Source: Eledone cirrhosa
Lineage: Eukaryota
Assembly: GCA_964016885.1 (NCBI GenBank)
Contig: OZ024744.1
Span: 8,618,001 to 8,682,000 of the forward strand
Direction: 5' to 3'
Length of the DNA stretch: 64,000 nucleotides
Shown: positions 2,643 to 64,000 of the stretch, one piece after another
Layout of the letters: the number at the start of each line of letters is the position of its first letter
How positions within the stretch are numbered: the stretch's first letter is position 1
The notes under the pieces: model-generated
Told to the model about the DNA's origin: nothing
Database searches by the model: none
What the model saw: only the letters and a program-made list of their open reading frames with translations
Made by a program: the position numbers and the translations under genes

Positions 2643-2681
<39 letters not shown>

Positions 2682-14223: not shown

Positions 14224-14267
<44 letters not shown>

Positions 14268-19187: not shown

Positions 19188-19195
19188 CTAATAAT

Positions 19196-21848: not shown

Positions 21849-21890
21849 ATAATAATAATAATAATAATAAAAATAATAATAATAATAATA

Positions 21891-22040
21891 CTTTCTTTAT
21901 TAACCACAATAGTTTACATAAAGTAGACGTTAAGGAAAGTACAGGACAATACAGGATGGTACAAATGGGCATTTCTGCGTGTAAAAAAACAAAAACAGAG
22001 GATGTAATAAAATAATAATGAAAAATTCCCCAATAGGGGA
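21891..22040 (-). mobile_element. Tx1-clade ~150-bp 3' UTR stub
   Basis: Matches the Tx1 3' UTR including AATAAA on -; (AAT)n on both sides. Confidence 0.88.
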
Positions 22041-22059
22041 ATAATAATAATAATAATGA

Positions 22060-25605: not shown

Positions 25606-25620
25606 ACAATAATAATAATA

Positions 25621-26396: not shown

Positions 26397-26399
26397 GGG

Positions 26400-26830
26400 C
26401 TGACATCAAGAAAAACATTATAGACGCCACAGGACGGTACAGGACGGTACAAGGTGGGTTTTGTGAGTGTAAATATTTTTATTATTTATACAAAAAAAGA
26501 AAAAAAGGACATAGAAACATATATATAAACAATAAAAATGAAAATTGAAACAATGAAAAATTCCCCAATAGGGGCAAACCTCTGAGGATTACTCGTGGAG
26601 AAAACTACACAAATGACCACGGCCACCCTGACTACCAGGGCAAGCGCCATCTCTCAATTTTTCCTCCATTTTTCAAACTACAGACGTATATTCAGAGTGG
26701 TCCCGTTCACTCGGACCATTCTCGCTACATTCACCCACATTTCAACAAACTTGCTGGAAGGCCCCACTTGCCTCTCCACCCTGATTTTCCTCTTCAAGTG
26801 AAACTTGAAAAAGTTAATTAGGGATTCGAT
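26400..26830 (-). mobile_element. Tx1-clade subfamily 2, 3' fragment
   Basis: FFKFHLKRKIRVER C-terminus; 3' UTR resembles 35590-35860. Confidence 0.8.
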
Positions 26831-31759: not shown

Positions 31760-31840
31760 TGTTTCTACTTTTGGCACAAGGCCAGCAATAACACAGTACA
31801 TTACTGGTACTTTTATTGCATCGACCCCGTCAGGATGAAA
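31760..31840 (-). mobile_element. SINE 3' fragment
   Basis: Homologous to 1041-1130 and 35400-35485. Confidence 0.7.
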
Positions 31841-35000: not shown

Positions 35001-35372
35001 CAAGAGCAGTCTTGACAGCAAATCCTACCACAGCCTCTCTTCTGGTTCCTTCATCTCTTCCTTTCCAGAAGAATGTATATTCTCCACAAAATTCTGTAAG
35101 ATGACCATCTCCAGCTAGCCTCGTCTCAGATAAAGCCACGATGTCAAGATCGTAACGTCGAAGCTCCTTTGCAACAAGAGTGGTCCTTCGTTCAGGACGT
35201 TCGGAATAATCCCTGTCAAGCAGTGTCCGTACTTTCTAACAGCCAATATTCAATTTTTTGTTTGGTTCTACCACAGTAGCACGATGGCGAGCGGGCCCAG
35301 GCTGTGATACCTAGGGCCCCTGCCCTTATTGCCAATTATCTCTTTTATATTGTTTTGGAACATCATTGAATT
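32100..35372 (-). mobile_element. RTE-clade LINE, decayed, same family as 2706-5783
   Basis: ORF pieces 34648-35139, 33134-34276, 32746-33222 and 32164-32649 nearly identical to the + copy. Retains a C-terminal C2H2-like CSVC...SHLRSH. Confidence 0.92.
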
Positions 35373-35399
35373 GGAAAAAAAGTAATAATAATAATAATA

Positions 35400-35588
35400 A
35401 AAATTGTTTCTACTTTCGGCACTAGGCCAGCAATTATCCCAGTGCATTACTGGTACTTTATTTTATCGACCCCATAAGGATGAAAGGCAAAGTTAACCTC
35501 GGCGGAATTTGAAATCAGAATGGCAAGGGCCGTAACTCTATGCGTCAAAGCATGGCGTCCGACCCCCTACCGATACTGCCAATCCGGT
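35400..35588 (-). mobile_element. tRNA-derived SINE
   Basis: Minus strand ..ttcaaattccgccgaggttaactttgcctttcatcctta.ggggtcgataaaa..agtaccag with (ATT)n tail. Confidence 0.8.
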
Positions 35589-43251: not shown

Positions 43252-46200
43252 TTATTTATTAACCACAAGGGTTTACATGAAGTAGACATTAACGACAGTA
43301 CAGGGCATTTCTGCGTGTAAAAAAAAACAAGAAACAGAGGATGTAATAGTAGAACAATGAAAAAATTCCCCAATAGGGGAGGGACTTCCGAGGGACATTC
43401 GTGGAGAAAGCCCATTAAAAAGCCACAGTGACCCTGACCACCAGGGCAAGTGCCCTCTCCCAGTTTTCCACCCTTAATTTACAGACACATACTCAGAGTA
43501 GGCCCATTCACTCGGGTCATTCTTGCCTCTCTCACCCATCTTTCAACAAAATGCTGGGAAGAGAGCTCCTCCCTCTCTACCCTAATTTTCCTTTTCAAAT
43601 AAAATTTGAAAAAGTTAATCAGGGCATCACCGAAGAGGTAAGTGCTCGTCTTCAGCCCTTTCAAACGTGTCCACCATACTATCTCTTTCGCCATGGCCAC
43701 CAGACATATAAAAACTACCTGCCCTTTCCGGCTAAAGGAAGAGGGCGGGGCAATCCTCACGATGGACTCAACTGATAGCTGGATCCGTCCCACACACGAC
43801 AGCAGCTGTTCGACATAAACCCACAAGTCAGCAATGCTCGGACACTGGACGAGTGCGTGCAGGACGGTTTCGTCGCCCTGCGCGCATCTCGGGCATGCCA
43901 GGCTGACGGCACCTCCATGCCTGTATAGTTTATCCCGAACTGGCAAAGCTCCTCGGTAGCACTGCCAGGCCAGGGATTTCTGGAAGTTGTCCAAAGGCCC
44001 CGGCCCGAAAGTTTTTCCGAAGATATTGGCTAGTTCATTTTCGTCGACGCCTAGAGTTTCCCCAAGTACGTCGTCGCTCTTCCCCTCCACTAATCCTTTA
44101 TAGAACGCCAAGGTGGAGTTTCCACCGATCACATTGCCCGATTGGTCAAGGGCTGTGAGCGCCTAAAGACATTCCAGTCTCCAAGCGCTCCCTCTCGGTC
44201 TTCGCTTGACCCAGGACTGAAGCTCCGTCAAGGAGACGAGCTGGGGAAAGACGCGTCTAGCAAACGGAGACCACACCTGATCACCTTCGAGGAAGATGTG
44301 GAGATGTCGTAGCCTGAGCGCGTGTCTGCGCATCATCAGCCACGGCATCCCCAGCCCTCCACGTAGCGGGTGTTGACAGCAGATGGACCGCCTGACCACA
44401 AAAAGCGAAAGAGCGAACGCTCCAGCGCAGTCAGGCGGGGCTTAGGACAAGGCACACCGGTCAGGCGGTAGTAGATGACGGACGCGATATACGCGTTAGC
44501 CACCTCCGCTCGACCTTTCAGAGATAGCTTCCTCTCGGCCCATTTCTGGGTGACAGAAGCCACCCTGCTCGTACCATCGTCCCTGTTTTTGTCTGTCTGG
44601 AGATGCGGACCGAACCAGACCCCGAGCAATTTAACTGGTCCGTCCGTCCAGCCCCCGACGACGCTGTTGGACGGTATGAACCTGCCTCTCCAGGTGCCGA
44701 GCTGCAGGCCCACTGACTTTTCCTGGTTGATCATTGCTCCTGTCACCGCTTCGTATTCTTTTAGTGTAGTGCCGATCGCCTCGATGTGTTTGGCGTTCGA
44801 CACCACTACGGTGACATCGTCCGCATATGCTGACACGGATCTTCCGCATCCTAGTTCCCGCGGGACCCCGCTCAACGTCTCCAGTTTGTGCAGTAATGGC
44901 TCGAGAGTCAATACGTACAATAGGGACGAGAGGGGACATCCTTGGCGGACCGAGCGCATGATGTTGAACGGTTCCGAAAGGTGACCGTTCACTCTCACCA
45001 CAGAGCAGATGTCGCTGTGCATGGCAGCGATCCAGCCTCTGAAGACGCGCCCAAAGCCAGCCGCCCTCAGGACTGTCGCTAGGTAACGATGGTCGACCCT
45101 ATCGAAAGCTTTCGACTGATCTATATTGATCAAGGACCCACCCGTGCCAGGTTCCCTAGCTACCCTCTCTATGATGTATCGCATGAGGTGGAGGTTGTCG
45201 TGGATGGATCTGTCGGGAATGGCGCATGTCTGCGCCTCTCCTACCAGACCACCAACGACAAGCGCCAACCTCTTTGCTAGCACCTTGGCCAAAATCTTGA
45301 ACTCTGTGTTTAGCAGAGTTATGGGCCTAAAATTATCTATGTTATCCCCCTTGTTCGGATCCTTTCTCAGCAGTGCCACAACTCCTCGGCTCACAGAGCT
45401 AGGATTTGTCCCGTTCTGTTTGTTGCCAGTTGCAGTAGACGTCCGCCAAGAGGCCTGCGAAAAAGTCTGGCATCTGTACGTAAAGTTCATAGGGCAGACC
45501 ATCCTAACCAGGCGATTTACCCCTTGTGCAGCTAGTCATTGCCTCCCGTACTTCAGCGGCTGTTATCGGCTTTCGCAAACCTCCGCCTCAGTGGCCGAAA
45601 GCCGCGGCAATCCGTCGAGGTAGATACTAAAGTCCATCCCTCGATCCGGCCCGAAGCTGCCCCCGAACAACTGAGCGAAGTGTCGCTGAAAAGCTTCACA
45701 CATTTGCCCGGGATCGAGTAGCATGCGCTCGTCGTGGTCCACCAAAGACCGGATCGTGGCTTTGTTGCCACGACGCGCCTCCGCCACTCGAGCCCATTGA
45801 ACGGCTTTCGTTCCCTCGTGTCTGAGAGCACGCACCCTAGCTCTGACAACGCAGCCTTCGTGCTTTGCATTGTAGAATTAGTCAAGGGCCAATTTCGCCC
45901 CAAGTACGTCGGTCGAGATGTCTTTGCTAAGCGCCTCGTATAATTCTCCCTCTGCTCTATTTTTCTCTATTGCTAAAGCCTTACTAAACCTAATGGACTC
46001 TATTCTAATTGCTCTTTCAGAGCAAACCACCACTTGTTGTTGACGATGGCCTCTGTCAACGCCCGCTTAACTAGTTCGCTAATCCGGTCTCTGTAGGCCT
46101 TGCGCGCTTGTAAGGTCACGTTTAGCTTCCAGTAGCCGGGTCCTCGTCTATGAAGCCTATCTAAGTCAAGTACACAGATCACGAATTTGTGGTCCGTGTA

Positions 46201-49072
46201 GCAGACTATCTTGAATTGTGGACAGCCTATGCTAGACCTATATATTTCTCTACAAAATACTCTATCTAGATATGATCTGGATGACCCTATGCGATTTGTC
46301 CAAGTCCACATTGGCACATTCGGGAAATCCAATCGGTACCTGTCAGACAGTTCAAAACGCCTGAGCAGGTTGGTGAGGCTCTTGCACCTTCCTCCCCTAT
46401 CCGCTAATCTCACAAAATCCCAGCGTGCATCTAAGATCCCGTTCCAGTCGCCCACTAACACTAAAGAGCGGGACGTTCCAAGAAAGGTCTCCAGACGCCG
46501 GAAGAAATCGGGCAGCCCTGCTCCTGTCGGGGCATAGACGGCCACTAGCCTGAAAGCTTGTCAGTCTCCGCTGGTCACGTCTAGCACCACCAACTTACCT
46601 TCTGTGTCCAGGAAGATGGCCCGTATGGCGAAATCCAAACCTCTCCGAAAAAGGACAGCAACTCCTCCCCCCCGATCCCGGACGGCTGGGAGATGCGTAC
46701 ACATCGTAGCCGCCGAAGATCGGTACGTAGGCTCCTGCTTCGGAGATTCTGGTCTCGCTGATGGCCATTACATCTATGTTTAGTGACCTGAGGTCGTTGA
46801 GCAGGTGGCCCCGCTTCCATGACGACCCCAAGCCACGCGCATTTATGCTGCCTATTCTGAGTGAGGTCATGTTGAAATGGAGTTGAAAAGATTGGAAAGA
46901 CCACTTACCTTACTTCTCGTAGAGAAAGGATGGTTTGTCCATCCTTTTCACTGCTTGTGGCCTCCTCAGGAAGGATGTCCTTATAAATCCTCCTGGAGAG
47001 TGTTTGTCGGAAGTCTCCGATGTCTTTGGGGAATTTTTGTTTTAGTGTCGTGTACGTTTTCTGTGTGATGCGAGTGATTTGTATGTGTGGAATGGTGTGA
47101 ACTTTTGGGTTGTTGTGTAGTCTTTTTCTGTGATGCTGATGTTGTGTTGGTTGTAGTGTAATAATTGGTTGTTGTTCAAATTTAATACTGTGTAGTGTGT
47201 ATCGTTTTGGTTGCTTTGTTTTGTTTGTGTTTGTTGTGGGTTTGTTTCTGTTACGCTTTTTGGTGACTTTTGTGGTGTTGGTGTAGGTGATGGTGGTGTT
47301 GGGGTTAATGATGGTGATGGTGTTGGTGTTTGTGGTGATGGGGTTGGTGATACTGGTGTGAATGGTGGCATATCTGTCTTAACTTTCTTGTTCGATAATT
47401 TATTTGTTTCCTTCTGTATTTTGTTTTTTGAGGGGGAAGGATGAGAATTTTATAATTTTTGGTTTCTTTTTTTTTTCTTTTTTTCTGATACCGTTTCCCA
47501 CTCCTCGTCGTCACAATCTGTCTCCAGTTGCCATAAGCCGGGGAGTGGAAAATCCTCCACAGGCGTTGGTTTTGGTTGTGGCGTGGTGGATGGTGTAGGC
47601 GCTGGTGCTAGTTCTGGCGCGTTGGGTGGTGGTGGTGTTGGTTTTGCTACTGTTGCTGGGGTTGTTGCTATTACAGTTGCTTCTGTTGTTGCTGCTACAG
47701 TTGTTGCTGCTATTTCTGCTGCTGGTGGTGTTGATGGTTGAGTCACTGGGGTGGGTAAGAGAGGTGGCCTCAACCTTTTAGCCTGAGGGCAGAAAGCCCT
47801 TAGGTGGGTTCCTTCACCACAAACGACACACCTAGGTCTTCTGCCCTCGACGATTACGGTGAGGTGGCTGCCGTCAGTGAGGTCTATTACCTCTGGGATC
47901 TCCTCAATGCTTTTATGGTCCGCTTGGATCAGGAGCTCCATCCCAGATCCGGACCAGTTCTCCTGCTTTTCTTTCGCTATTTCTATTATTTTGGTGCTGG
48001 CCTCGATGCCGGCGAGGACGGCAGCCATTAGCCAGGGAATTTCGATGGCCGGTGGAACGTGGGTCACCCTGATCTTCACAAGTCTCTGGCCACAATAGCT
48101 TGGAATGAGTGTGAAGTCGTCACTTCTTAATGGGGCCATGGAGTGTTCTCTGGCCTCCTGTGCTGTTTCAAAGAACACGTCCACGGTTCCATACTTCTGC
48201 CCACGTCTGATGTGGTTTATTTTTTGCCCACACATGTCCCAAAGCTTTTTGGATTTGGGACTCAGATGCCCGTTCCACTCGGCGCGATTTTATGTTAATT
48301 GTACGATAAGACTCGGTGCATAGGCGACGTTGCTCCATTTTATTAGGTGAGGGGGGGATGACCCTGTACCCATCTTTCTTTACCATTCCTTTGGCTTCGT
48401 CTAATACTTCCTGAGTTACCTGGATCGCTTCGCACGTTTTTGCTACTCTGGCAAAACTCAGGGTAGTTTTCTTAATTTCATTGTTGCTGTTGTTGTTATC
48501 GTTATTTTTGTTATTAATTTTAGTTTCAGTTGTGGTGGTGGTGGCGTCAGTGTTGTTCGGTGTGGAAGAGTTCATTTTGGTTCAATTCATTTCGATATCA
48601 TGAGTTAATTTATTCTTTTTCTTTTGTTTCTGTTGTCGCTGTGGTGGTGGTCGGGGTGGTGGTTGTCGTGGTGGTGGTGGTGGCGGCTTTAACACCTGCA
48701 GTCATTGGTAATGGCGGGAAATGAACGTCTGCCTGAGACAAATTAAGAATATTGCTACTGCTTACAATTCCAATGTTGGCAACCGTAGCAATATTTACAA
48801 TGGTGGTGTCGGTGTGAGGTGTTGGATTGTGAGGAAGGAGTGAATCTGAGTCATCCATTATTTTTCAAAGAAAAACATTTTTGTTTGATAATTATAAAGT
48901 TAAAATTTTGGGCTCAAGGCCCCAATATTTTTGAGTGTCCTTTTCAGAAATCAATGTATGTGCACTTATATATAGTTAACAATAAAAGTTTTCCATAAAT
49001 GGCAATTTTAAATAACTGAAAATAACAAACATTTGCGGAGCTCACGATGATACGATTTACTACGTAGGTCGC
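43252..49072 (-). mobile_element. Tx1-clade subfamily 1, full length, frameshifted
   Basis: ORF2 pieces 43479-46870 and ORF1 pieces 46905-48858 (CVVCGEGTHLRAFC); (AAT)n at both ends. Confidence 0.93.
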
Positions 49073-49073
49073 C

Positions 49074-49147: not shown

Positions 49148-49900
49148 GGGAAGAAGACGCACGTGGTGGTAGAAGGTCATGAAATCGCTCCCGTAAGTTT
49201 TTGATTTTTAACATATTTAAATCAATTGTGAAATAACAATTCTTAGTACAAATGATGCATAAATCACCGAATCAAGTCTCATAAAAATTTGGATCCATAA
49301 TATATTGTTATATCGCTCAAATATTCAATTTTGTATTATATATTTTATATTCAAAAAAGAAAATGGTTATAAATGGAAGAAACCCCCCCCCCCTATGTCT
49401 ACACTATATAGAACAGCCAAATAACAGCAATTTCACCAACACCAGAAACTAGATACACCACCTACCCCATCACCCGCTGTGTACACTAAATATAACAGCC
49501 AGATAACGGCAATTTCACCATCACCACCATCACCACCAATCCCAGCATCATAATAATAATAATTATTATTATTGTCTCAAGTTTTAACAAAATGTTTAAT
49601 TCCAATATTAAGATAATATATCAACACATATATTAAACATACGCGACACAAACGCATAGATACTACAGATCAAACAAAACTACAGTCTATTCAACAAAAC
49701 ACCGTAACGACAACGCCACCGTGCCACCACTCCATCCATCATTGCTACCACTATCCCATCACCGCCGCCACCACTCCTTCATTGCTACCACCACTATTCC
49801 CCCATTACCTTCTGTTAACTTAAGAAAGGGGAAGGTGGCGGTATCACTAGACAAGGGAGAGGCTAGCAAAGATATAAATAGATTGACTGAGTGACCCGGC
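49148..49900 (+). promoter_or_regulatory. Second close copy of 5' module 'M'
   Basis: gggaagaagacgcacg...aaatcgctcccgtaagtttt...accagaaactagatacacc aligns with 14268-14920. Confidence 0.6.
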
Positions 49901-50034
49901 CACCGGCCAAACGTCAACAACTATGGTACTGCTGGCTCCCCCCCTTCCCCACCAACAATATAAAAAGCCCCAGCACCACCACCGACATAGCCAACAACAA
50001 TAACAGGCAACTTCAGCAAAAAGTATATTATATT

Positions 50035-50092
50035 ATTGTAATGCACTGGGTAATTGCTGGCCTTGTGCCTGGAGTGGAGACAATTATTAATA
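50035..50092 (+). mobile_element. SINE 3' fragment
   Basis: gtaatgcactgggtaattgctggccttgtgcc...gagacaattatt is the reverse complement of the SINE end at 35400-35450. Confidence 0.65.
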
Positions 50093-50169
50093 ATTTCATT
50101 CTTAAGCCACGCAATACTCACATTAAGGAACCACTCATGATAAAAACAATTTAAAAAAAAACAACAAAA

Positions 50170-53100
50170 AAGAAAACCCAGTGACCAAGAAATACCGGGA
50201 TGGCGGCCGGCGGGGAATAGCCGAGTCTTGGTTGACACTCGTCCTAGAAGTGGTAACACGAAATGATTACCCCTTGGCGGATAAGGATAACACGCGACAA
50301 AATAAAGTAAATGTCTAATGATAAAATCTCATACAGGATCGGCCGTCACCCGGGTCAAAAAGGCCCGCGTCCCTCAGAGAGGTACCAGACTGGGGTCGAA
50401 AAATCAACTAATGGTTCAAACCTTCCCATCACTTCGGAGCTCGAGACCTCCCATAACCGGAATACTCCTACTGTTGGCCCTCCATGTTCACCAATAAGAA
50501 ATCCAAAGAAAAAGAGAGAAAAATGGTCAAGAGAAGATAATAAAGAAGTCCTTGAGGCTTTCTACACTGCCATGTACTACCCATCAAATACATCGAATAC
50601 AGAACAGACATATATCAACTGGAAAAAGAAACATCCCGAAAACAGAGGCTATAATGACAGTAACAAACTAGCCAATATACGAAGAAATATTGTAAGAAAA
50701 ATGTTACTAACTGATATAAAAATTGATCAGATCAAGCTATTAGCACAAAGTCAGCGAAGGGAAAATGAAACATGTGACAGTGAAAACGAGGTAAATTATA
50801 ACACTTCGAATCCCAGGGTTGGGGCGGAATCACTGACAACAGAACAAATTAAAGAAAGGATCGAAAAAGTGGAGGGAGTGCATGCTCAAGATGAAACTCC
50901 AAATGAAAACAATGAGATCGTAAATGATAAAGAAATGAATGAGAATGAACTTGCCAACTTGAAGGATGAAATTATGATCGAATGGATGAAAATGAAAGAA
51001 TCTGACATGGGGCAACGAGACACCCTCCCTAAGATCCAGAACTCCAAACAGAACCAAAAGATAATACACAAGACTAACATAATTCTCAAAAACATTATCA
51101 TCACAAACAAACTAAACATTACTGATTTAAGTCATCTCTATTATGCATCGGCTAAAGTCACCACTCACTTATGTGGAGTGAAGATGAAAAAACAAAGGAA
51201 TTCCCACAAGAAATCTACTTGGCAAGAGAACATCAATCGCCAAATAAACCTTCTCCGATCTGACATAGAAATTTTTACAAACTATAAAGTAGGTGAACAT
51301 GTTAAAACAAACTAAACTTAGAAAATTGAAAAGAAAGTACAGTATAAAATCAACAAGAGACATAGACATGCTGATAGAAATAATCAAGCAAAAAGTGTCG
51401 GCCAAAGCTGCTCGTATAAGGCGCTTTGAAAAACGATCTAGATTCTATAAGGACAATAATATGTTTAAAACAACCAAAGAAATATCTACAGAAAAATTGG
51501 TAAGTCAACAATAACTGCTAAATCAATACCACCCAAGGAGGAAGTGCAAGAATTCTGGGAAAAGATCTGGGCCGAAGAAAAAGTTCATAATATACATTCC
51601 CCATGGATAGACAGACAAATGAAAGATACAGCTCACCTTGAAGAACAAATATGGGAAAATATAACAGTTGAACAGTTGCGTTTGGCTCAAAACCAGCAAA
51701 TAGAAATCCCCAGGAAAAGACAAAATACAAATTTTTGGATAAATGCCTTCACAGAGTCTCATGAGCTGTTAGCCCAAATTTACAATGAAATACTTAAGGA
51801 GCCAGAAAAGATACCATCATGGCTAGTTAACGGCATTACATTCCTGCTTCCGAAGAATGATGAGACAAACAATCCCAAAAATTACAGACCGATAACTTGC
51901 TTGGCACAATGTATAACATTTTACAATCAGTCCTAACTGAATATACATATGACCACCTGATAACAAATGACTTATTTCCCATTGAGCAGAAAGGGTGTAA
52001 ACGATGCTCATATGGCTGTAAGGATCAGCTTTTGGTTGAAAAAATGATACTGGAAGATTGTCATAATAGACACAAAAATCTATCAATTGCTTGGATAGAT
52101 TATAAAAAAGCATTCGATAGTTTGCCACACAGTTGGATTGAAAAATGTTTAGAGATTTTCAAAATATCTCCCGTTGTCAGGAGGTTTTTATCATTCAGTA
52201 TGAAGACATGGAAAACGACACTTCTTTTGAATAGTGAAACAAAATCACTGGAAGCTGGGGAAGTTAATATTAATTGTGGAATTTTTCAGGGTGACTCTTT
52301 AACACCGCTTTTATTCTGCATCGCACTTATACCATTAAGTAAAATGCTCAATGAAACAAAACATGGATATAAAGTCTATGACAAAACCATGAATCACTTG
52401 TTCTACATGGATGACCTGAAACTATTTGCAAAAAATGATGAACAATTGCAAGGGCTATTATCCACTGTGGATCAGTTCAGTGATGACATTAAAATGGAGT
52501 TTGGACTAGATAAATGCGCTAAAGCAACGTTCACCAGAGGAAAGCTGCTGAAAAGTTCAGACATTAATCTTGATCGGGGGAACGTGATAAGAGAACTTGA
52601 TCAAGAGGAAACTTACAGATATCTAGGTGTTTGTGAAGGAGACGGAATCAAGCACTCGACAATGAGGGAAAGGATAAGGAAGGAATGTTACCGCAAAGTA
52701 AGAGTAATCTTAAGAACGGAATTGAATGCAAGGAATAGGATCGATGCCATAAACAGGCTTGCCATACCAGTAGTAACCTACCGTTACAATGTCATCAACT
52801 GGTCAAGCACAGAGATCCGTAGGCTGGATACAAAAATTCGAAAATTCTTAACCATGCACAGAATGCATCACCCTAAGGCAGATACAGATAGAATATATCT
52901 CCCTAGGAAAGAAGGGGGACATGGGTTAATCCAGTTAGATTTTGCGTTGAAAACTGCAACAATTGGATTATCTATATATCTAAGGGAATCACATGATTGG
53001 ATGATCAAACTCGTTTTGAAACACGAAAGCATCAAAAGATCATATTCCATTACAAAAGATGCACAAAGATACAGTAATGGACTACAAATTTCAGAAGTCC

Positions 53101-54098
53101 CATTTACTGCTGAAATGGAAAACACAGAAAAAGCAAAGCCCGGAAAAGTAACTGCAAAGAAAGAACTGCTACAGAAACTGGTTAAGAAATGGCAAGAAAA
53201 GCCTCTGTATGGAAAATACCCAGAACAAGCTAACAATCCTGATGTTGACAAAACTTTAACCCATCAGTGGTTGGCATCCTCTGGACTGAAATCGGAGACT
53301 GAAGGACTGATTATATCAGCACAAGACCAGTGTCTGCCAACAAAAAATTACCAAGCCAACATAATAAAAAATGGATGCAGCCCATTATGCCGTGTATGTA
53401 AAAAAACAACCAGAGACCATTGGCCATATAATTTCAATGTGCAGTCCTATAGCTCCAACCGAATACCTAAACAGGCATGACAGAGCTGCACAATACATAC
53501 ATTGGATAATGTGTAAGCATTTTGACCTGCCCCATCAAAAGAATTGGTGGGAGCATCAACCACCTCCCATACTTGAAAAAGATCACATCTCAATCTTGTG
53601 GAACTTTAGCATCCAAACAGACCGAAAAATAGATGCAAATAGACCTGATATAATATTGAAGGACTTTAAAAAGAGGATATGCCTGCTAATTGATATGTCC
53701 GTTCCAATAGACAAGAAAGTATCTATAAAAACATTTGAAAAATTGAGCAAGTATAAGGACCTGGAGATAGAAATTGGAAAAATGTGGAAATTGAGAACTA
53801 AAACAATACCAGTGGTTGTAGGCGCTCTAGGAATGATACCTAAGGGGTCTAATGATTACTTATCGCAAATCCCAGGAAACCCGCGTATAGGAGAAATACA
53901 AAAGATAGTACTAATGGGATCTGCCCATATACTAAGGAAGATTCTGTCAATATAAGTACTTCACAAGTCTAAACACTAAAGATGCATGTGTGAGTATGTA
54001 TGTTCTTTCTTGAACATGGCGGACCTTGTTGTCTCTGGAGGTCACTGGTTGTGACTTGGTGGTAACTCGTATGAACATAAAGCAAGATAAATGCAGCT

Positions 54099-54099
<1 letters not shown>
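50170..54099 (+). mobile_element. R4/Dong-clade family B, full length, decayed
   Basis: ORF pieces 50311-53955: KWSREDNKEVLEAFY, RIRRFE, NYRPITCL, GIFQGDSL, LFYMDD, CRVC..H..C, RPDII; (AAT)n tail 54100-54150. Confidence 0.93.
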
Positions 54100-54150
<51 letters not shown>

Positions 54151-54151
<1 letters not shown>

Positions 54152-54862
54152 GCAGGCCCTCAAAACGAAGTGGTTGAAACACCATATTTACAAGGAGGAG
54201 GCTAGCCTACTGTGCAGAATCTGTGGAGAGAGAGAGAGAGGAGACTGTAGCTCACATTGTATCCGAGTGTAAACACCTAGCCCAGACTCACTATAAGAGC
54301 TGGAGACATGATGTGATGGGCAGGGTGATCCACTGGCATCTATGGAAAGTGAACAATTTACCACATTCTGAGAAGTGGTATGAGCATAAGCCAGAGTCGG
54401 TGATAGAAAACGATCAGGTGAAGGTGCTGTGGGATTTTAGGATACAGACGGACAAGAAACTGGAACACAATAGACCTGACCTGGTGGTTTTGGACAAGGG
54501 AAAAAGATCGTGTCTGATTGTGGATGTGGCCTGCCCATTCGACACGAGAGTGCAAGAGAAGGAGAGGAAGAAAATTAACCGATACAAGGACTTAAAGTGA
54601 GAGGTAAAAAGGATTTGGAACTGCTATGAAGTCAAGGTGGTCCCGATTATCATAGGCGCACTAGGTACTATCTCAAAGAGTTTCCAAGGATGGTTAAAGA
54701 AAATTGGCCCCTTCACGCTTTTTGGAACGCTTCAAAAGGCATGCCTGCTGGGAACAGCAAGAACCCTCCGATACGTCCTGAATATCTGAGGCTGTAGGTA
54801 GTGGCTTGATATTCATTTTAACAAACTTTCCAGTTAACTAACATCAATGACTGAGACTCAAA
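54151..54862 (+). mobile_element. R4/Dong-clade family A, 5'-truncated
   Basis: Matches 13495-14205; (AAT)n on both sides. Confidence 0.92.
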
Positions 54863-54940
<78 letters not shown>

Positions 54941-55199
54941 TTTCTTTATTAACCACAAGGGTTTACATAAAGTAGACATTAAGGACAGTGCAGGACAATG
55001 CAGGACGGTACAAATGGGCATTTCTGCGTGTAAAAAACAAAAACAGAGGATGTAACAAAAATAACAATGAAAATAACAATGAAAAATTCCCCAATAGGGG
55101 GGAGACTTCCAAGGGACATTTGTGGAGAAAGCCCATTAAAAGACCACAGTGGCCCTGACCACCAGGGCAAGTGCCCTCTCCCAGTTTTCCACCTTTAAT

Positions 55200-58100
55200 T
55201 TACAGACACATACTCAGAAAAGGCCCATTCATTCGGGCCATACTTGCTTCTCTCACCCATCTTTCAACAAAATGCTGGGAAGAGAGCACTTCCCTCTCTA
55301 CTCTGATTTTCCTTTTCAAATGAAATTTGAAAAAGTCAATCAGAGCATCACCGAAGAGGTAAGTGCTCGTCTTCAGCCCTTTCAAACGTGTCCACCATAC
55401 TATCTCTTTCACCATGGCCACCAGGCAGATAAAAACTGCCTGCCCTTCCCGGCTAAAGGAGGAGGGCGGGGCAATCCTCACGATGGACTCAGATGATAGC
55501 CGGATCCGTCCTAAACGCGACAGCAGGTGTTCGACATAAACCCACAAGTCAGCAATTTTCGGACACTGGACGAGTGCGTGCAGGACGGTTTCGTCGCCCT
55601 GCGCGCATCTTGGACATGCCCGGCTGACGGCACCTCCATGCCTGTAGAGTTTATCCCGAACTGGCAAGGCTCCTCGGTAGCACTGCCAGGCCAGAGATTT
55701 CTGGAAGTTGTCCATAGGCCCTGGCCCGAAAGTTCTTCCGAAGAGATTGGCTAGTTGATTTTCGTCGACGCCTAGAGTTTCCCCAAGTACGTCATCGCTC
55801 TTCACCTCCACTAATCCTCTATAGAACGCCGAGGTGGAGTTTCCACCGATCACATTGCCCGATTGGTCGAGGGCTGTGAGCGCCTGAAGACATTCCAGTC
55901 TCCAGGCGCTCCCTCTCGGTCTTCGCTTGACCCAGGACTGCAGCACCGTCAAGGAAACGAGCTGGGGAAACACGCGCCTAGCAAACGGCGACCACACCTG
56001 ATCACCGTCGAGGAAGAGGTGGAGATGTCGTAGCCTGAGTGCGTGCCTGCGCATCATCAGCCACGGCATGCCCAGCCCTCCACGTAGCGGGTGTTGACAA
56101 CAGATGGACCGCCTGACCATCGGAGCGCGTCCCTTCCACAAAAAGCGAAAGAGCAAACGCTCCAGCGCAGTCAGGCGAGGCTTAGGACAAGGTACGACGG
56201 TCAGACGGTAGCAGATGACGGACTCGATGTACGCGTTAGCCACCTCCGCTCGACCTTTCAGGGATAGCTTCCTCTCCGCCCATTTCTGGGTGAGAGAAGC
56301 CACCCTGCTCGTCACCTCGTCCCAGTTTTTGTCCGTCTGGAGGTCCGGACCGAAACAGACCCCTAGCAATTTAACCGGTCCGTCCGTCCAGCGTCCGACG
56401 ATGCTGTTGGACGGCATGGACCTGCCTCTCCAGGTGCCGAGCTGCAGGCCCACTGACTTTTCCTGGTTGATCATTGCTCCTGTCACCGCTTCGTATTCTC
56501 TTAGTGTAGTGCCGATCGACTCGATGTGTTTGGCGCTCGACACCACTACGGTGACATCGTCCGCATATGCTGACACTGATCTTCCGCATCCTAGTTCGCG
56601 CGGGACTCCCCTCAACGTCTCCAGTTTGTGCAGTAATGGCTCGAGAGTCAATACGTACAAGAGGGACGAGAGGGGACATCCTTGGCGGACCGAGCGCATG
56701 ATGTTGAACGGTTCCGACAGGTGACCGTTCACTCTCACCACAGAGCAGATGTCGCTGTGCATGGCAGCGATCCAGCCTCTGAAGACGGGCCCAAAGCCAG
56801 CCGCCCTCAGGACTGCCGCTAGGTAACGATGGTCGACCCTATCGAAAGCTTTCGACTGATCTAAATTGATCAAGGACCCACCCGTGCCAGGTTCCCTAGT
56901 TACCCTCTCTACGATGTATCGCATGAGGTGGAGGTTGTCGTGGATGGATCTGTCGGGAATGGCGCATGTCTGCGCCTCTCCCACCAGACCACCAACGACA
57001 AGCGCCAACCTCTTTGCTAGCACCTTGGCCAAAATCTTAAACTCTGTGTTTAGCAGAGTTATGGGCCGGAAATTGTCTATGTTATCCCCCTTGTTCGGAT
57101 CCTTTCTCAGCAGTGCCACCGCTCCTCGGCTCACAGAACTGGGAATACTCCCGTTCTGTTGCCAGTTGCAGTAGACGTCCGCCAAGAGGCCTCCGAACAA
57201 GTCTGGCATCTGTACGTAAAGTTCATAGGGCAGACCATCCAAACCAGGCGATTTACCCCTTGTGCAGCCAGTCATTGCCTCCCTTACTTCAGCGGCTGTT
57301 ATCGGCTTTTCGCAACACTCCGCCTCAGTGGCCGAGAGCCGCGGCAGTCCGTCGAGGTAGACACTAAAGTCCATTCCTCTACCCGGCCCCCCGCTTCCCC
57401 CGAACAGCTGAGCGAAGTGTCGCTGAAAAGCTTCACACATTTGCCCGGGATCGAGTAGCATGCGCCCGTCGTGGTCCACCAAAGACCGGATCGTGGCTTT
57501 GTTGCCACGACGCGCCTCCGCCACTCGGGCCCATTGAACGGCTTTCGTCCCCTCGTGTCTGAGAGCACGCACCCTAGCTCTGACAACGCAGCCTTCGTGC
57601 TTTGCATTGAAGAATTGGTCAAGGGCCAATTTCACCGCAAGTACGTCGGTCGCAATGCCTTTGCTAAGCGCCTCGTCTAATTTTTTAACTAGTTCTCCCT
57701 CTGCTCTATTTTTCTCTATTGCTAAAGCCTTACTAAACCTAATCGATTCTATTCTAATCGCTCTTTTCAGAGCAAACCACCACTTGTTGTTGACGATGGC
57801 CCCCGTCAACGCCCGCTTAACTAGTTCGCTAATCCGGTCTCTGTAGGCCTTGCGCGCTGGTAAGGACGCGTTTAGCTTCCAGTAGCCGGGTCCGCGTCTA
57901 TGAAGCCTATCTAAGTCAAGCACACAGGTCACGAATTTGTGGTCCGTGTAGCTGACTATCTTGAATTGTGGACAGCCTATGCTAGACCTATCTATTTCCC
58001 TACAAAATACTCTATCTAGATATGATCTGGATGACCCTATGTGGTTTGTCCAAGTCCACATTGGCACATTCGGGAAATCCAATCGGTACCTGTCAGACAG

Positions 58101-58619
58101 TTCAAAACGCCTGAGCAGGTTGGTGAGGCTCTTGCACCCTCCACCCCTATCCGCTAATCCCACACAGTCCCAGCGTGCATCTAAGATCCCGTTCCAGTCG
58201 CCCACTAACACTAAAGAGCGGGACGTTCCAAGAAAGGTCTCCAGACGCCGGAAGAAATCAGGCCGCCCTGCTCCTGTCGGGGCATAGACGGCCACTAGCC
58301 TGAAAGCTTGCCCGTCTCCGCTGGTCACGTCCAGCACCACCAGCTTACCCTCTGGGTCCAGGAAGATGGCCCGTATGGCGAGATCCAAACCTCTCCGAAA
58401 AAGCACAGCAACTCCTCCACCCGATCCAGGACGGCTGGGAGATGCGTACACATCGTAGCCGCCGAAGATCGGTGCGAAGGCCCGTGCTTCGGAGATTCTG
58501 GTCTCGCTGATGGCCACTACATCTATGTTTAGTGACCTGAGGTCGTTGAGCAGGTGACCCTGCTTCCATGACGACCCCAAGCCACGCACATTTATGCTGC
58601 CTATTCTGAGTGAGGTCAT
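55200..58619 (-). CDS. Tx1 ORF2p: APE endonuclease + reverse transcriptase + C-terminal zinc finger (1139 aa)
   Basis: GSINVRG, ISETR, VYAP, GDWN, YLDRVF, TDHK, WKLN; KSPGLDGLP, FRPITLLN, LDQSKAFDRVDH, VRQGCPLS, YADD; CPRC...H...C. Confidence 0.96.
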   Translation of the reverse strand: MTSLRIGSINVRGLGSSWKQGHLLNDLRSLNIDVVAISETRISEARAFAPIFGGYDVYASPSRPGSGGGVAVLFRRGLDLAIRAIFLDPEGKLVVLDVTSGDGQAFRLVAVYAPTGAGRPDFFRRLETFLGTSRSLVLVGDWNGILDARWDCVGLADRGGGCKSLTNLLRRFELSDRYRLDFPNVPMWTWTNHIGSSRSYLDRVFCREIDRSSIGCPQFKIVSYTDHKFVTCVLDLDRLHRRGPGYWKLNASLPARKAYRDRISELVKRALTGAIVNNKWWFALKRAIRIESIRFSKALAIEKNRAEGELVKKLDEALSKGIATDVLAVKLALDQFFNAKHEGCVVRARVRALRHEGTKAVQWARVAEARRGNKATIRSLVDHDGRMLLDPGQMCEAFQRHFAQLFGGSGGPGRGMDFSVYLDGLPRLSATEAECCEKPITAAEVREAMTGCTRGKSPGLDGLPYELYVQMPDLFGGLLADVYCNWQQNGSIPSSVSRGAVALLRKDPNKGDNIDNFRPITLLNTEFKILAKVLAKRLALVVGGLVGEAQTCAIPDRSIHDNLHLMRYIVERVTREPGTGGSLINLDQSKAFDRVDHRYLAAVLRAAGFGPVFRGWIAAMHSDICSVVRVNGHLSEPFNIMRSVRQGCPLSSLLYVLTLEPLLHKLETLRGVPRELGCGRSVSAYADDVTVVVSSAKHIESIGTTLREYEAVTGAMINQEKSVGLQLGTWRGRSMPSNSIVGRWTDGPVKLLGVCFGPDLQTDKNWDEVTSRVASLTQKWAERKLSLKGRAEVANAYIESVICYRLTVVPCPKPRLTALERLLFRFLWKGRAPMVRRSICCQHPLRGGLGMPWLMMRRHALRLRHLHLFLDGDQVWSPFARRVFPQLVSLTVLQSWVKRRPRGSAWRLECLQALTALDQSGNVIGGNSTSAFYRGLVEVKSDDVLGETLGVDENQLANLFGRTFGPGPMDNFQKSLAWQCYRGALPVRDKLYRHGGAVSRACPRCAQGDETVLHALVQCPKIADLWVYVEHLLSRLGRIRLSSESIVRIAPPSSFSREGQAVFICLVAMVKEIVWWTRLKGLKTSTYLFGDALIDFFKFHLKRKIRVEREVLSSQHFVERWVREASMARMNGPFLSMCL

Positions 58620-58654
58620 GTTTAAAATAGAGTGGAAAAGATGGGAAAGACCAC

Positions 58655-60733
58655 TTACCGTACTTTTGGTAGAGGAGGGATGGTTTTTACATCCCTTTTC
58701 ACTTGATCGTCTGGTGAAGGGACCGTTGAATCGTCCCTTCGGCTGGTCGTCGGCTCTTCTAAGAGAATGTCTGAGTATACTCTTCGATTGATGGTTCCTC
58801 CTAGGTCCCTGAAATCACCAACTGCGTTGGGGAATTTCGTTTTAATGTTTGTGTATTGTTTCTGTGCTATTTTTAGCAGTCTTATGTTAGTTGGCGTTTT
58901 GATTGGTGCTGGTATTATGTAGTCCTGTTGTGAAATGTCTGTGTGTTCAATTATGTAAGTCATTAGTTTCTTGTTGTGTGTATTTATTGCCGTGCATTTG
59001 TTTTTCTGGGGGTGGGGTGTGGTTCTACTATTTTCTTGTCGTTGTTGCTGGGTGTGTGTGTTTTGTTGTTGTGTTTGCGATGTTGGTGCTTGTGGTGGTG
59101 GTGTTAAAGGTGTTGTTGGCGGTGGTGATGGTGGTGCTAGTGTGGGTGGTGATGGTGTTGGTGTTGTTGCTGCTGTGGGTCTCTTTGCAGTAGACTTTAC
59201 CCTTTTCTCATTTCTTTCCTCCCTTTTCAAAGGCGACGATGCAATGCTTCTGCGTTTGTGCCTTCTTACGACCTTTTGCCATCCCTCTCCCACCTCACAC
59301 TCCATGTCTGATTCTGTGAGGTCGGGGAGGGGTACCAGCTCCACTCTTTCACTTGTTGTTGGTGATGTTTGCACTGGAGTCTCTGTTGCAGCTGCATTTG
59401 GTATTGCTGTTGTTGTTGTTAATATTTCCACTGCTGCTGCTGTTTTTGATTTCCGTGGAGTGGGTATGGGTGCCACGGACCTATCGTTCCTGGTTGCCGC
59501 TTGTCCTGTTGCTGGTAGCCGTGGAGCCGGATTCGGAAGGAGGGGGGTTTTCTCCTTTCTCAGGGTCTTCTCGTTGCAGAAGGCCCTGAGGTGAGTCTTC
59601 GATCCACAGCGAAAGCATTTCGGGCGTTTGCCCTCAACACTTATGGGCAGTTGAGTGCCGTTATCGAAGTCTATCACATCCGGGATAGATTCGATGCACT
59701 CCTGGTTGGTTTGGATTAGCATCTCAATGGAGGAGCCGACCCAATCTTCTCTTACTTTTTTCTGTACTTGCAGTACAGTTGTTTTGTCCTCGATTCCGAC
59801 GAGGACAGACGCGGCCAGCCAAGAAGGGGTCATTCCGGTGGGGACGTGGGTTAGTTTGACCCTCACAATTTTTTGCCCACAGTAGGAGGGCACCAACACC
59901 ATTTCCTCGCTCCTTAGGGTCACTACTGATTGGGCCTTTGCCTCCTGGGGTGTGGCAAAAAGTACGTCTACGGTGGCATATTTTTTGCCTCGGGTGATGT
60001 GCGTTTTCCGCTGCCACACAGACCCCAAGGCTTTTTGTATTTGGGCCTCTGTGGCTCTTTCCACCCTACGGGATTTTGTACTTACTGTACGGTACGTGAC
60101 CGTACAGTGCTCTTGGGTTTCGAAAAAATTTTCCGCTGCCTTGCAGATTGCTCGGTGTCCGTTCTTTGTAACCATCTTCTTCGCTTCCTCTAATTCCTCA
60201 TTTGTTATGAGGATTGTTTCCAAGTTTTTCGCAATACCTGCAAATGAGATTGGTTTTTCTCTGCTGTTGTTGTTGTCGTCAGAGCTGCTGGTACTTTTGT
60301 TGTTGCTGCAGGTACTACGACTACTGCCTCCGCCGCTGTTGCTGTGGTTGTTGTTGGTGTTGCTGCTGCTAATGCTGTTGTTGTTTATGCTGCTGGTGAT
60401 GCTGTTGCGGCTGCTACTGTTGTTTTCATTGTCACTGTTGCTGTTGTTATTACGGCTGCTACTGCTATTATTCCTGACGTCAGACGAATGAACTGGGTTT
60501 TCGTATTTCCCGCACACCTGTTTCGTCGCTGTCGTCGTCGTCGTGGAGAAACTTTGCACGCTTTGCACGAGACTTTTCTTTTCTTTCGTCACTTGCGAAA
60601 GAGAAGGGAGGGAGAGAGACACATTTAAAGAAGGGAGGGAGAGAGACAATCTTCTCTCTGCTGTAGTGATGATTGAGGAAGAAGAAGACGGAATGAGTGG
60701 GAGTGACGTATGAAATTTCTTTTTCGTAGCCAT
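58655..60733 (-). CDS. Tx1 ORF1p: low-complexity N-terminus, central globular region, single CCHC knuckle (692 aa)
   Basis: Uninterrupted ORF upstream of ORF2; CFRCGSKTHLRAFC; homologous pieces in four other copies. Confidence 0.92.
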   Translation of the reverse strand: MATKKKFHTSLPLIPSSSSSIITTAERRLSLSLPSLNVSLSLPSLSQVTKEKKSLVQSVQSFSTTTTTATKQVCGKYENPVHSSDVRNNSSSSRNNNSNSDNENNSSSRNSITSSINNNSISSSNTNNNHSNSGGGSSRSTCSNNKSTSSSDDNNNSREKPISFAGIAKNLETILITNEELEEAKKMVTKNGHRAICKAAENFFETQEHCTVTYRTVSTKSRRVERATEAQIQKALGSVWQRKTHITRGKKYATVDVLFATPQEAKAQSVVTLRSEEMVLVPSYCGQKIVRVKLTHVPTGMTPSWLAASVLVGIEDKTTVLQVQKKVREDWVGSSIEMLIQTNQECIESIPDVIDFDNGTQLPISVEGKRPKCFRCGSKTHLRAFCNEKTLRKEKTPLLPNPAPRLPATGQAATRNDRSVAPIPTPRKSKTAAAVEILTTTTAIPNAAATETPVQTSPTTSERVELVPLPDLTESDMECEVGEGWQKVVRRHKRRSIASSPLKREERNEKRVKSTAKRPTAATTPTPSPPTLAPPSPPPTTPLTPPPQAPTSQTQQQNTHTQQQRQENSRTTPHPQKNKCTAINTHNKKLMTYIIEHTDISQQDYIIPAPIKTPTNIRLLKIAQKQYTNIKTKFPNAVGDFRDLGGTINRRVYSDILLEEPTTSRRDDSTVPSPDDQVKRDVKTIPPLPKVR

Positions 60734-60974
60734 GTTGTTTTTTGTTTAAAATGAATATTGGGTACAAAACCCCAATAACTGGTTATTTAGCCCCGAAGGG
60801 CCAAATAACGGACAGAAAGACCCCTCTCACGAGGAGGAGGGTGTCTTTATCAACAATTTGGTTCAAGTTTTAAACAATTTACAATTGTTTTAACGGTTAA
60901 AAATTACTATACCTTACAGAGCCGAGCCTCCGTCAACCATGGCATTCAATAATAATAATAATAATAATAATAAT

Positions 60975-63900
60975 GATTTCTTTATTAACCACAAGGGTTT
61001 ACATAAAGTAGACATTAAGGATAGTGCAGGACAATACAGGACGGTACAAATGGGCATTTCTGCGTGTAAAAAACAAAAACAGAGGATGTAACAAAACAAA
61101 TAACAAAGAAAAATTCCCTAATAGGGGGGAGACTTAGGAGGGACATTTGTGGAGGAAGCCCATTAAAAGGCCACAGTGACCCTGACCACCAAGGCAAGTG
61201 CCCTCTCCCAGTTTTCGACCTTTAATTTACAGACACATACTCAGAGTAGGCCCATTCACTCGGTCCATTCTTGCTTCTCTCACCCATCTTTCAACAAAAT
61301 GCTGGGAAGAGAGCACTTCCCTCTCTACCCTGATTTTCCTTTTCAAATGAAATTTGAAAAATCAATCAGGGCATCACCGAAGAGGTAATTGCTCGTCTTC
61401 AGCCCTTTCAAACGTGTCCACCATACTATCTCTTTCGCCATGGCCACCAGACAGATAAAAATTGCCTGCCCTTCCTGGCTAAAGGAAGAAAGCGAGGCAA
61501 TCCTCACGATGGACTCAGCTGATAGCTGGATCCGTCCTACACGCGACGGCAGGTGTTTGACATAAACCCACAAGTCAGCCATGCTCGGGCACTGGACAAG
61601 TGAGTGCAGGACGTTACATGCCCGGGTGACGGCACCTCCTTGCCTGTAGAGTTTATCCCGAACTGGCAAAGCTCCTCGGTAGCACTGCCAGGCCAGGGAT
61701 TTCTGGAAGTTGTCCATAGGCCCCGGCCCGAAAGTTCTTCCGAAGAGATTGGCTAGTTGATTTTTGTCGACACCTAGAGTTTCCCCAAGTACGTAGTCGC
61801 TCTACCGATCCACTAATCCTCTATAGGACGCCAAGGTGGAGTTTCTACCGATCACATTGCCCGATTGGTCGAGGGCTGTGAGCGCCAGAAGACATTCCAG
61901 TCTCCAAGCGCTCCCTCTCGGTCTTTGCTTGACCCAGGACTGCAGCTCCGTCAAGGAGACGAGCTGAGGAAAAACGTGTCTAGCAAACGGCGACCACACC
62001 TGATCACCGTCGAGGAAGAGGTGGAGAAGTCGTAGCCTGAGTGCGTGTCTGCGCATCATCAGCCACAGCATGCCCAGCCCTCCACGTAGCGGGTGTTGAC
62101 AGCAGGGTGTTGACCATCGGAGTGCGTTCCTTCCACAAAAAGCGAAATAGCAAACGCTCCAGCGCAGTCAAGATACGAGGGTCAGGCGGTAGTAGATGAC
62201 GGACGCTATGTACGCGTTAGCCACCTCCGCTCGACCTTTCAGGGATAGTTTTCTCTCAGCCCATTTCTGCGTGATCCAATTCGGGAGATCCAATCGGTAC
62301 CTGTCAGACAGTTCAAAACGCCTGAGCAGGTTGGTGAGGCTCTTGCACCCTCCACCCCTATCCGCTAATCCCACACAGTCCCAGCGTGCATCTAAGATCC
62401 CGTTCCAGTCGCCCACTAACACTAAAGAGCGGGACGTTCCAAGAAAGGTCTCCAGACGCCGGAAGAAATCAGGCCGCCCTGCTCCTGTCGGGGCATAGAC
62501 GGCCACTAGCCTGAAAGCTTGCCCGTCTCCGCTGGTCACGTCCACCACCACCAACTTACCTTCTGGGTCCAGGAAGATGGCCAGTATGGCGAGATCCAAA
62601 CCTCTCCGAAAAAGCACAGCAACTCCTCCCCCCGATCCAGGAAAGGCTGGGAGATGCGTACACATCGTAGCCACCGAAGATCGGTGCGAAGGCCCGTGCT
62701 TCGAAGATTCTGGTCTCGCTGATGGTCACTACATCTATGTTTAGTGACCTGAGGTCGTTGAGCAGGTGGCCCTGCTTCCATGACGACCCCAAGCCACGCG
62801 CATTTATGCTGCCTATTCTGAGTGAGGTCATGTTGAAATGGAGTGGAAAAGATGGGAAAGACCACTTACCTTACTTCTCTTAGAGGAAGGATGGTTACTC
62901 CATCCTCTTCACTGCTTGTGACCTCCTCCGGAAGGATGTCCTTATAAATCCTCCTGGAGAGTGCTTGTCGGAAGTCTCACATGTTTTTGGTGAATCTTTG
63001 TTTTAGTGTCGTGTGCGTTTTCTGTGTGATGCGAGTGATTTGTATGTGTGGAGGGGGTGTGAACTTTTGGGGTGTTGTATAGTCTTTTTCTGTGATGCTG
63101 GTGCTCTTTTGGATGTAGTGTAATAATTGGCTGTTGTTCAAATGTAATGCTGTGTAGCGTGTATCGTTTTGGTCGTTTTGTTTTGTTTGCGTTTGTTGTG
63201 GGTTTGTTTCTGTTTCTCTTTTTGGTGACCTTTGTGGTGTTGGTGATGGTGGTGTTGGGGTTAATGATGGTGATGGTGTTGGTGTTTGTGGTGATGGGGT
63301 TGGTAATGCTGGTGTGGATAGTGGCATAGCTGTCCTAACTTTTTTGTTTGATAGTTTATTTGTTCCCCTATGTATTTTGTTTTTGGAGGGGGGAAGGAAG
63401 GGGACTTTTTTCTTTTTTGGCTTCTTTTTCTTTTTTTCTTTTTTCCTGATACCGTTTCCCACTCTCCGTCGTCACAATCTGTTTCCAGTTGCGATAGGTC
63501 GGGGAGTGAAACATCCTCCACAGGCGTTTGTTTTGGTTGTGGCGTGGTGGATGGTGTAGGCGCTGGTGCTAGTTCTGGCGCGTTGGGTGGTGGTGGTGTT
63601 GGTTTTGCTACTGTTGCTGGGGTTGTTGCTGTTCCAGTTGCTTCTGTCGTTGCTGCTACAGTTGTTGCTGCCATCTCTGCTGCTGGTGGTGTTGATGGTT
63701 GAGTCACTGGGGTGGGTAAGAGAGGTGTCCTCAACCTTTTAGCCTGAGTCCAGAAAGCCCTTAGGTGGGTTCCTTCACCACAGACGACATACCTAGGCCT
63801 TCTGCCCTCGACGATTACGGTGAGGTGGCTGCCGTCAGTGAGGTCTATTACCTCTGGGATCTCCTCAACGCTTTTTTGGTCCGCTTGGATCAGGAGCTCC

Positions 63901-64000
63901 ATCCCAGATCCGGACCAGTTCTCCTGCTTTTCTTTTGCTATTTCGATTATCTTGGTGTTGGCATCGATGCCGGCGAGGACGGCAGCCATTAGCCAGGGAA
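60975..64000 (-). mobile_element. Tx1-clade subfamily 1, internally deleted (RT core missing), runs off window
   Basis: The junction at ~62275 joins endonuclease (DRYRLDLPN) to post-RT (TQKWAERK); ORF1 pieces 62866-63989. Confidence 0.92.

Follow-up and report, generated by a model that had tools for sequence, protein, structure and literature searches.

An intact element in an array of AAT tracts

The DNA analyzed here is a 64,000-nucleotide (nt) stretch of the Eledone cirrhosa genome (assembly GCA_964016885.1, contig OZ024744.1, positions 8,618,001 to 8,682,000 of the forward strand), referred to as the window and numbered from its first letter. From 13.4 kb to the end of the window extends an array of two kinds of long interspersed nuclear elements (LINEs) with AAT tracts between them. 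Within it, positions 54939-60947 of the minus strand hold an intact non-long terminal repeat retrotransposon of the L1 group, Tx1-like, with two open reading frames (ORFs); this element is copy G. An original prediction, made from the letters of the DNA alone, had taken it for an intact, probably active Tx1 element apparently specific for (TTA)n. Its parts and flanks are the following:

54864-54938, no strand: (AAT)25, which is (ATT)25 in the element's own sense; target/tail tract on the downstream side, common to the 3' end of a Dong/R4-like fragment (Dong-A)
54939-55199, minus: 3' untranslated region (UTR), 261 nt, with AATAAA at 54945-54950 and without poly(A)
55082-55097, minus: 16-nt core of the 3' UTR, CTATTGGGGAATTTTT, with a small CCCC-TATT-GGGG hairpin
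55200-58619, minus: ORF2, 1139 amino acids (aa), intact; APE endonuclease, reverse transcriptase (RT) and C-terminal CCHC
55563-55616, minus: C-terminal CCHC zinc knuckle of ORF2, C1002-C1019
56361-57089, minus: RT core (RVT_1, E 3e-28) with YADD
57939-58619, minus: APE endonuclease domain, residues 1-227, with the betaB6-betaB5 loop in the TNHIGSSRS region
58655-60733, minus: ORF1, 692 aa, intact, with low-complexity ends and a core like that of RRM+CCHC (ZCCHC3-like) proteins
59576-59617, minus: single CCHC knuckle of ORF1, CFRCGSKTHLRAFC, at residue 373
60734-60947, minus: 5' leader, 214 nt, with a GTAAG donor-like motif at +31 and a hairpin at 60782-60809
60948-60974, no strand: (AAT)9; target tract on the upstream side, which also serves as 3' tract for the next copy (H)

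Both ORFs are open, as predicted, and ORF2 carries the expected APE and RT motifs (NVRG, SET, VYAP, GDWN, YLDR, TDH and YADD) ahead of its CCHC; Pfam recognized Exo_endo_phos, RVT_1 and zf-RVT in it. A spacer of 35 nt separates the two frames. The core of ORF1 resembled the CCHC and ZCCHC3-RBD (RNA-binding) clusters in an atlas comparison (0.90-0.93); a Pfam search of ORF1 gave no RRM, a homologue search yielded none among 853 candidates, and a single-sequence structure model was too poor to use (predicted local distance difference test score, 34). A Pfam MBD match in ORF1 lay below the cut-off and was rejected. Both ends of the element abut the repeat directly, (AAT)25 on one side and (AAT)9 on the other, and the sense 3' end reads AATAAAGAAATC followed by (ATT)n, with no poly(A), in full agreement with the prediction.

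The 16-nt core was present in 9/9 copies of the family, with a single change in one, and is a candidate RT recognition element; covariation in a consensus folding of the 3' UTR was weak. The hairpin ahead of the ATG was kept in copies G, F and E, with a two-sided change in 3/12 pairs. An Rfam search of the element and the leaders (E up to 1) gave no match, and neither a U1/U2 head nor an HDV-like ribozyme was supported.

Sibling copies

The family comprises nine copies in the window, all on the minus strand (two-sided p 0.004). Besides G they are:

18834-19188, minus: copy A, made up of the 3' end and a piece from inside ORF2, with a 7-nt TAATAAT remnant at the 5' junction
21890-22039, minus: copy B, 150 nt, 5'-truncated, AAT tracts on both sides
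25620-26394, minus: copy C, 5'-truncated, joined to D1 without a tract
26395-26827, minus: copy D1, truncated member of a divergent subfamily, without its own 3' tip; degenerate AAT (11/12) at the 5' junction
26856-31717, minus: copy D2, decayed, ORF2 identity about 75%; (AAT)14 at the 5' end
35589-40822, minus: copy E, three-piece composite; 5' end on AAT, 3' end adjoining the head of a short interspersed nuclear element (SINE)-like repeat
43252-49073, minus: copy F, near full length, with ORF1 and leader unlike those of G
60975-64000, minus: copy H, with an internal deletion, continuing past the window; first tract unit ATC as in G

Truncated copy B (22021-22039) reaches precisely to the conserved CCCC-TATT-GGGG hairpin and stops at its 5' base. 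The ORF2 of copy F is 94.7% identical to that of G and is broken by four stops and five frameshifts. From about 58700 to the 3' end F and G are 91-98% identical; upstream, in ORF1 and leader, identity falls to 62-73% with many gaps, while the same region is common to F and H at 92.8%. By this pattern, ORF1 and leader were exchanged near the ORF1/ORF2 boundary, with a breakpoint at about 58700. A 61-aa piece 64% identical to the endonuclease of G was also found in protein P0059, a tectonic-3-like gene model of Octopus sinensis, and is probably a mis-predicted or exonised transposable element fragment.

Insertion junctions

Each junction was scored by its match to AAT over 12 nt; at 10/12 or better, the background in the window is 0.93%. 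AAT units stand at 7/8 5' ends and 7/9 3' ends. Six of the eight 5' ends score at least 10/12 (binomial 2e-11), and 6/9 3' ends are perfect, D2 being degenerate (9/12) and D1 and E lacking a tract. The 5' ends at 31717, 40822 and 49073 are each AAT over 12/12 nt, which bears out the prediction that these copies start at the repeat and shifts the last by one base from 49072. The 5'-truncated copies support a (TTA)n preference better than these full-length ones, since a templated 3' tail cannot create AAT at a truncated 5' end: AAT units occur at three of the four such ends, and two of the four pass the strict score (5e-4). The 5' end of copy A scores 8/12, but its TAATAAT is absent from both neighbouring elements.

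The full-length 5' ends have more than the tract to define them, because the leaders of G, F and E are similar in length (206-222 nt to the ATG) and those of F and E align clearly. Five of the seven 5' tract junctions agree in register (sense strand, ATT|). Tracts of at least (AAT)4 touch an element end in 9 of 17 cases; among the matches listed there were 20 runs of at least (AT)5, all in the first 12.6 kb, and none lies beside a copy. An odd first unit, ATC, is common to G and H, and as these are the closest pair it suggests a template reaching into the tract, that is, an RNA that includes the start of the tract.

The copies are separate insertions and not a block duplication, because the identities of neighbours are discordant: where junctions A and F are compared, the Dong parts are 97.8% identical and the adjoining element parts 91.9%, and among the junction partners A is closest to G (97.0%). 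The p-values nevertheless overstate the case, since all copies lie in one array. For loci outside the window, a protein scan of genome contigs gave nine pattern matches, none confirmed; a motif scan returned six bacterial loci with only 19-31 nt matching, which were taken as chance.

Age and selection

Along the lineage to G the ratio of non-synonymous to synonymous change (pN/pS) was 0.13-0.35 in five polarised comparisons; the siblings gave 1.02 and 0.91 for the dead copies H and C, 0.50-0.64 for F and 0.30 for E2. The lineage of G was under purifying selection. Four siblings together carry 17 stops and frameshifts, though some of the frameshifts could be assembly errors, and 5.5 kb of G carry none, which sets an upper bound of 0.5% on the post-insertion divergence of G (0.9% on a conservative count, 1.4% from stops only). 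This bound corresponds to about 1.4-2.5 million years at the octopus rate used in PMC13282606. By these measures G looks young and competent. An intact and young element is thus what remains of the claim of a probably active one; for current activity the window offers no near-identical sibling, the closest long match being 92%.

Dong/R4-like neighbours and the 5' leader

The second kind of LINE consists of two Dong/R4-like families on the plus strand that fill the same AAT tracts in the orientation opposite to that of the G family, a point absent from the original prediction. Three members are referred to repeatedly:

14266-18802, plus: Dong/R4-like element A, near full length, with RT and restriction-like endonuclease (RLE) motifs; leader 14266-14493
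49149-54100, plus: element of a second Dong-like family, B (aa identity to A about 40%), behind a leader of Dong-A type
54150-54863, plus: Dong-A, 5'-truncated, tail-to-tail with copy G across (AAT)25

These neighbours gave RT matches and share a C-terminal CCHC...RPD...D...K pattern, which we take to be the RLE of R4/Dong. All seven Dong-like 3' ends examined run into AAT-type tracts on the plus strand, and the only exception in orientation among the Dong-like DNA is an inverted internal segment (20625-21038) in the Dong-B copy at 19196-21847. Dong tails (18803, 43207, 14206 and 25607, all Dong-A) start with AAC variants, which are shared by the close copies A18802 and A43206; this suggests that the Dong RNA also includes tail units. 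Target (TAA)n has been described for Dong in insects, molluscs and cnidarians (PMC7998251) and in Bombyx (PMC1635306), and among molluscs R4-Dong is reported as almost exclusive to cephalopods (PMC10294476). APE and RLE elements occupy the same tracts and would prime from opposite strands, which would make a mixed tail-to-tail array.

The 5' leader of the G family resembles the Dong-A leader colinearly over about 200 nt of the sense strand, also a point new to this analysis. Dong-A-type leaders occur on the plus strand at 14266-14493, 49148-49366 and 22058-22250; downstream of them lie an ATG-like start and tracts rich first in CAC and then in A, an arrangement that recalls the low-complexity start of ORF1. 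Possibly the Dong-A-type leader is a captured leader. When the full Dong leaders were globally aligned, 0/626 GC-matched windows scored higher in one case (z 5.7) and 0/160 in the other (z 4.6), with a fairly high complement control (188-205 against 293). In local shuffle tests the z scores were 2.7-3.6 (both full Dong leaders) and 0.7-2.9 (truncated leader); in reciprocal nhmmer leader profiles the top cross matches fell at the right place and strand with E 0.2-2.4, next to 0.51 for a decoy. Strong similarity was therefore confined to the global test. All three G-family leaders have GT(A/G)AG at +29 to +32 and both Dong leaders have GTAAGT, a coincidence noted post hoc. Shared ancestry of the two leaders is likely on this comparison.

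Classification

The ORF2 of G combines an N-terminal APE, an RT and a C-terminal CCHC, as in the L1 group, and is closest to L1 ORF2p; its best relative of solved structure is human L1 ORF2p (E 8e-54). In the database it comes closest to a single protein (78% identity), followed by a group at 39-45%. A FastTree phylogeny of 221 RT cores, from which most fish-like matches were left out, placed G in a group of 65 rows that includes vertebrate proteins with TX1 names (Shimodaira-Hasegawa support 0.945). In a quick IQ-TREE run on 40 chosen rows, G and five relatives (99) branched from a polytomy and belonged neither to the vertebrate TX1-named clade nor to an 8-row L1-like clade (100), one member of which, P0152, scores 346 bits to human ORF2p against 186 for the ORF2 of G. 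Labels in both trees are automatic database names, and Repbase references were not among the rows.

Tx1 type I ORF1 proteins are defined by RRM domain(s) plus a CCHC knuckle (PMC5203782), and G has such a knuckle, CFRCGSKTHLRAFC. Preference for a multicopy target, common in the Tx1 clade though not universal, is seen at this one locus. G stands apart from the strict L1 clade by its position outside the L1-like rows and by lacking both Transposase_22 and poly(A), and from R4/Dong by its APE and two ORFs. Of the predicted Tx1 identity, membership of the L1 group and likeness to Tx1 hold; strict Tx1 membership is no more than possible, the RT lying outside the vertebrate TX1-named clade in the 40-row tree. 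From that tree, G appears to belong to a deep lineage of its own and to be Tx1-like.

Proposed insertion mechanism

Taken together, we consider it probable, with considerable room for doubt, that the G family inserts into (TAA/TTA)n by target-primed reverse transcription (TPRT), guided by endonuclease preference and tail pairing. The transcript would start in the 214-nt leader, use or pass AATAAA and end in a few AUU units rather than in poly(A). ORF1 (RRM-like plus CCHC) would coat this RNA and ORF2 would bind it, perhaps at the 16-nt 3' UTR core. As TPRT nicks the strand complementary to the RNA, the nick by the APE domain would fall in the A-rich strand, (AAT)n, with a TpA step as its probable site; L1 nicks TTTT/AA (PMC1950540). 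The freed ...AAT-3'OH would then pair with the (AUU)n tail and prime RT, a step that would set the orientation and strengthen the preference. In L1, pairing between primer and tail shapes the priming step, and grafting loops was not by itself enough to redirect the element (PMC4014453). A second-strand cut inside the tract would leave repeat on both sides, so that each insertion would yield two new targets.

Several observations weigh against this mechanism. The C/D1 junction near 26394 has no tract and shows GGCC microhomology, and the 3' end of E at 35589 adjoins the SINE-like head, again without a tract. An odd first unit, AGT, is common to B and C, which are not closest relatives. The endonuclease loop is of L1 length, not extended like that of Tx1L, and its length varies among near relatives. 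All of the evidence comes from one 50-kb array, where local bias is inseparable from genome-wide preference; an RTE-like pair and SINE-like repeats also lie at ATT tracts, which may be generally permissive.

The loop raises the possibility that pairing does all the work. A loosely TpA-preferring, L1-like endonuclease without sequence specificity could nick widely and only nicks in (AAT)n would prime on (AUU)n; this would account equally well for the constant orientation and for the first unit being inherited, and L1 that carries grafted loops keeps inserting at sites able to pair with its tail (PMC4014453). We judge it unlikely, though deserving of weight, as the mostly common 5' register (5/7) hints at ordered second-strand cutting and the Tx1L endonuclease is sequence-specific in vitro (PMC1950540). 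The predicted (TTA)n specificity holds as a preference visible at the junctions; the endonuclease may confer it, but annealing of the (AUU)n tail to the nicked strand could also suffice.

It is improbable that the real target is the 3' flank of Dong or the family's own ends, in the manner of Tx1L in Tx1D, with the microsatellite incidental. Although at 5/9 3' ends a Dong-like 3' end lies on the other side of a single tract and the leader is common to both kinds of element, H and D2 lie opposite the 5' end of a different Tx1-like copy, the 5' neighbours are varied (5' ends of Dong, truncated pieces of it, the tail of a SINE-like repeat) and the tract is the only common sequence. Least credible of all is multiplication of a single junction by tandem duplication, unequal crossing-over or assembly joins in AAT tracts: composite E, the fused C/D1 and the inverted Dong-B piece (20625-21038) attest to local rearrangement, but segmental duplication as main cause was rejected on the discordant identities across junctions, and copies with varied truncation points, several ORF1/leader types and identities of about 75% to 95% all conform.

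We advance only tentatively, as possible but rather doubtful, that a cephalopod L1-group lineage independently evolved a (TAA)n-recognising APE, convergent in target with the unrelated RLE-type Dong elements but acting on the strand opposite to that used by Dong, and that a 5' leader/promoter module of about 200 nt was exchanged between the two clades within the arrays that they form jointly. Targeting of the microsatellite by the G family would, if true, make (TTA)n a new target for APE-type retrotransposons, and this seemingly in a lineage apart from the vertebrate TX1-named elements; the meeting of APE and RLE elements with a shared leader on one microsatellite, from opposite strands, would help explain transposon hotspots and AAT-rich arrays in octopus genomes. 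With an intact young element, the share of the endonuclease in target choice could be told apart from that of primer-tail pairing, a question that bears on L1-type targeting and on retargeting efforts. Its significance is that of a transposon curiosity rather than a new mechanism.

Other repeats in the window

A third APE-RT LINE, presumably RTE-like, is present in two copies 90.7% identical (2668-5786, plus; 32354-35404, minus), both starting beside (ATT)n on their own strand. The SINE-like repeat occurs at 35405-35590 (minus), 31760-31840 (minus), 50038-50082 (plus) and 1051-1196 (minus); three of the four end by ATT units, and the repeat may seed AAT/ATT tracts. We assume that these ATT-tailed repeats resemble octopus SINEs. 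At 1386-1430 (minus) there is a type I hammerhead ribozyme match (32.8 bits, gathering threshold 34, E 2.7e-4), which may belong to a Penelope-like element or a retrozyme. Positions 9445-10900 (minus) hold the decayed 3' part of another RLE-type LINE, presumably CRE/Hero-like, with CCHC, GKRPDG and LVWDAT motifs and no Pfam match.

Comparison with known systems

The families Kibi and Koshi and their crocodilian counterparts, compared here by description only, are like G L1/Tx1-group APE-RT elements residing in microsatellites, and carry poly(A) tails. Koshi, with (TTC)n, differs in target from G, with (TTA)n, by one base per unit; the junctions of G are AAT/ATT and not the (TC)n or (TTC)n of Kibi/Koshi, and a single (AAG)15 run occurs, on the far side of (AAT)10 and beside a Dong-type leader. 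Microsatellite targets described for Tx1 families are (TC)n, (TTC)n, (TTCC)n and (TTTC)n, Kibi/Koshi being from teleosts and others crocodilian (PMC4494074). The main text of that paper contains no whole-word TAA, TTA, ATT or AAT, though the target labels of its Fig. 3 may bear on the claim. The original prediction knew of no (TTA)n-specific Tx1, and none targeting (TAA)n/(TTA)n was found in the literature searched, a comparison to which Repbase, Dfam and key papers were external.

In Octopus vulgaris, 13 recently active L1-Tx1 families (421 insertions) and five Dong-R4 families have been reported (PMC13282606), and the available text describes no target preference for the former. The G family may be among them, and given their number its sequence is probably present in an automated library without a note on target.

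Tx1L of Xenopus laevis, like G, has two ORFs with APE-RT and is a precedent for sequence-specific targeting; its target is the transposon Tx1D, its betaB6-betaB5 loop is longer (PDB 2v0r), and it was absent from our trees. The loop of G, shorter than the grafted Tx1L loop, has the same length as that of human L1 ORF2p, but L1 nicks TTTT/AA on the T-rich strand, ends in poly(A) and has a Transposase_22 ORF1, whereas G would prime from the A-rich strand. Dong/Rex6 (R4 clade) has the same (TAA)n target as G, is interleaved with it in the array and has a similar 5' leader, yet it possesses a single ORF with a C-terminal RLE, lies in the opposite orientation and is only about 25% identical in RT. 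LINE families that share a 5' segment are known from Nimb-17_LMi / I-3_DR / RTE-9_CPB and from ingi / L1Tc (PMC4758252); the shared heads described there measure about 70-77 nt, whereas here the similarity covers about 200 nt and joins APE and RLE elements with one target.

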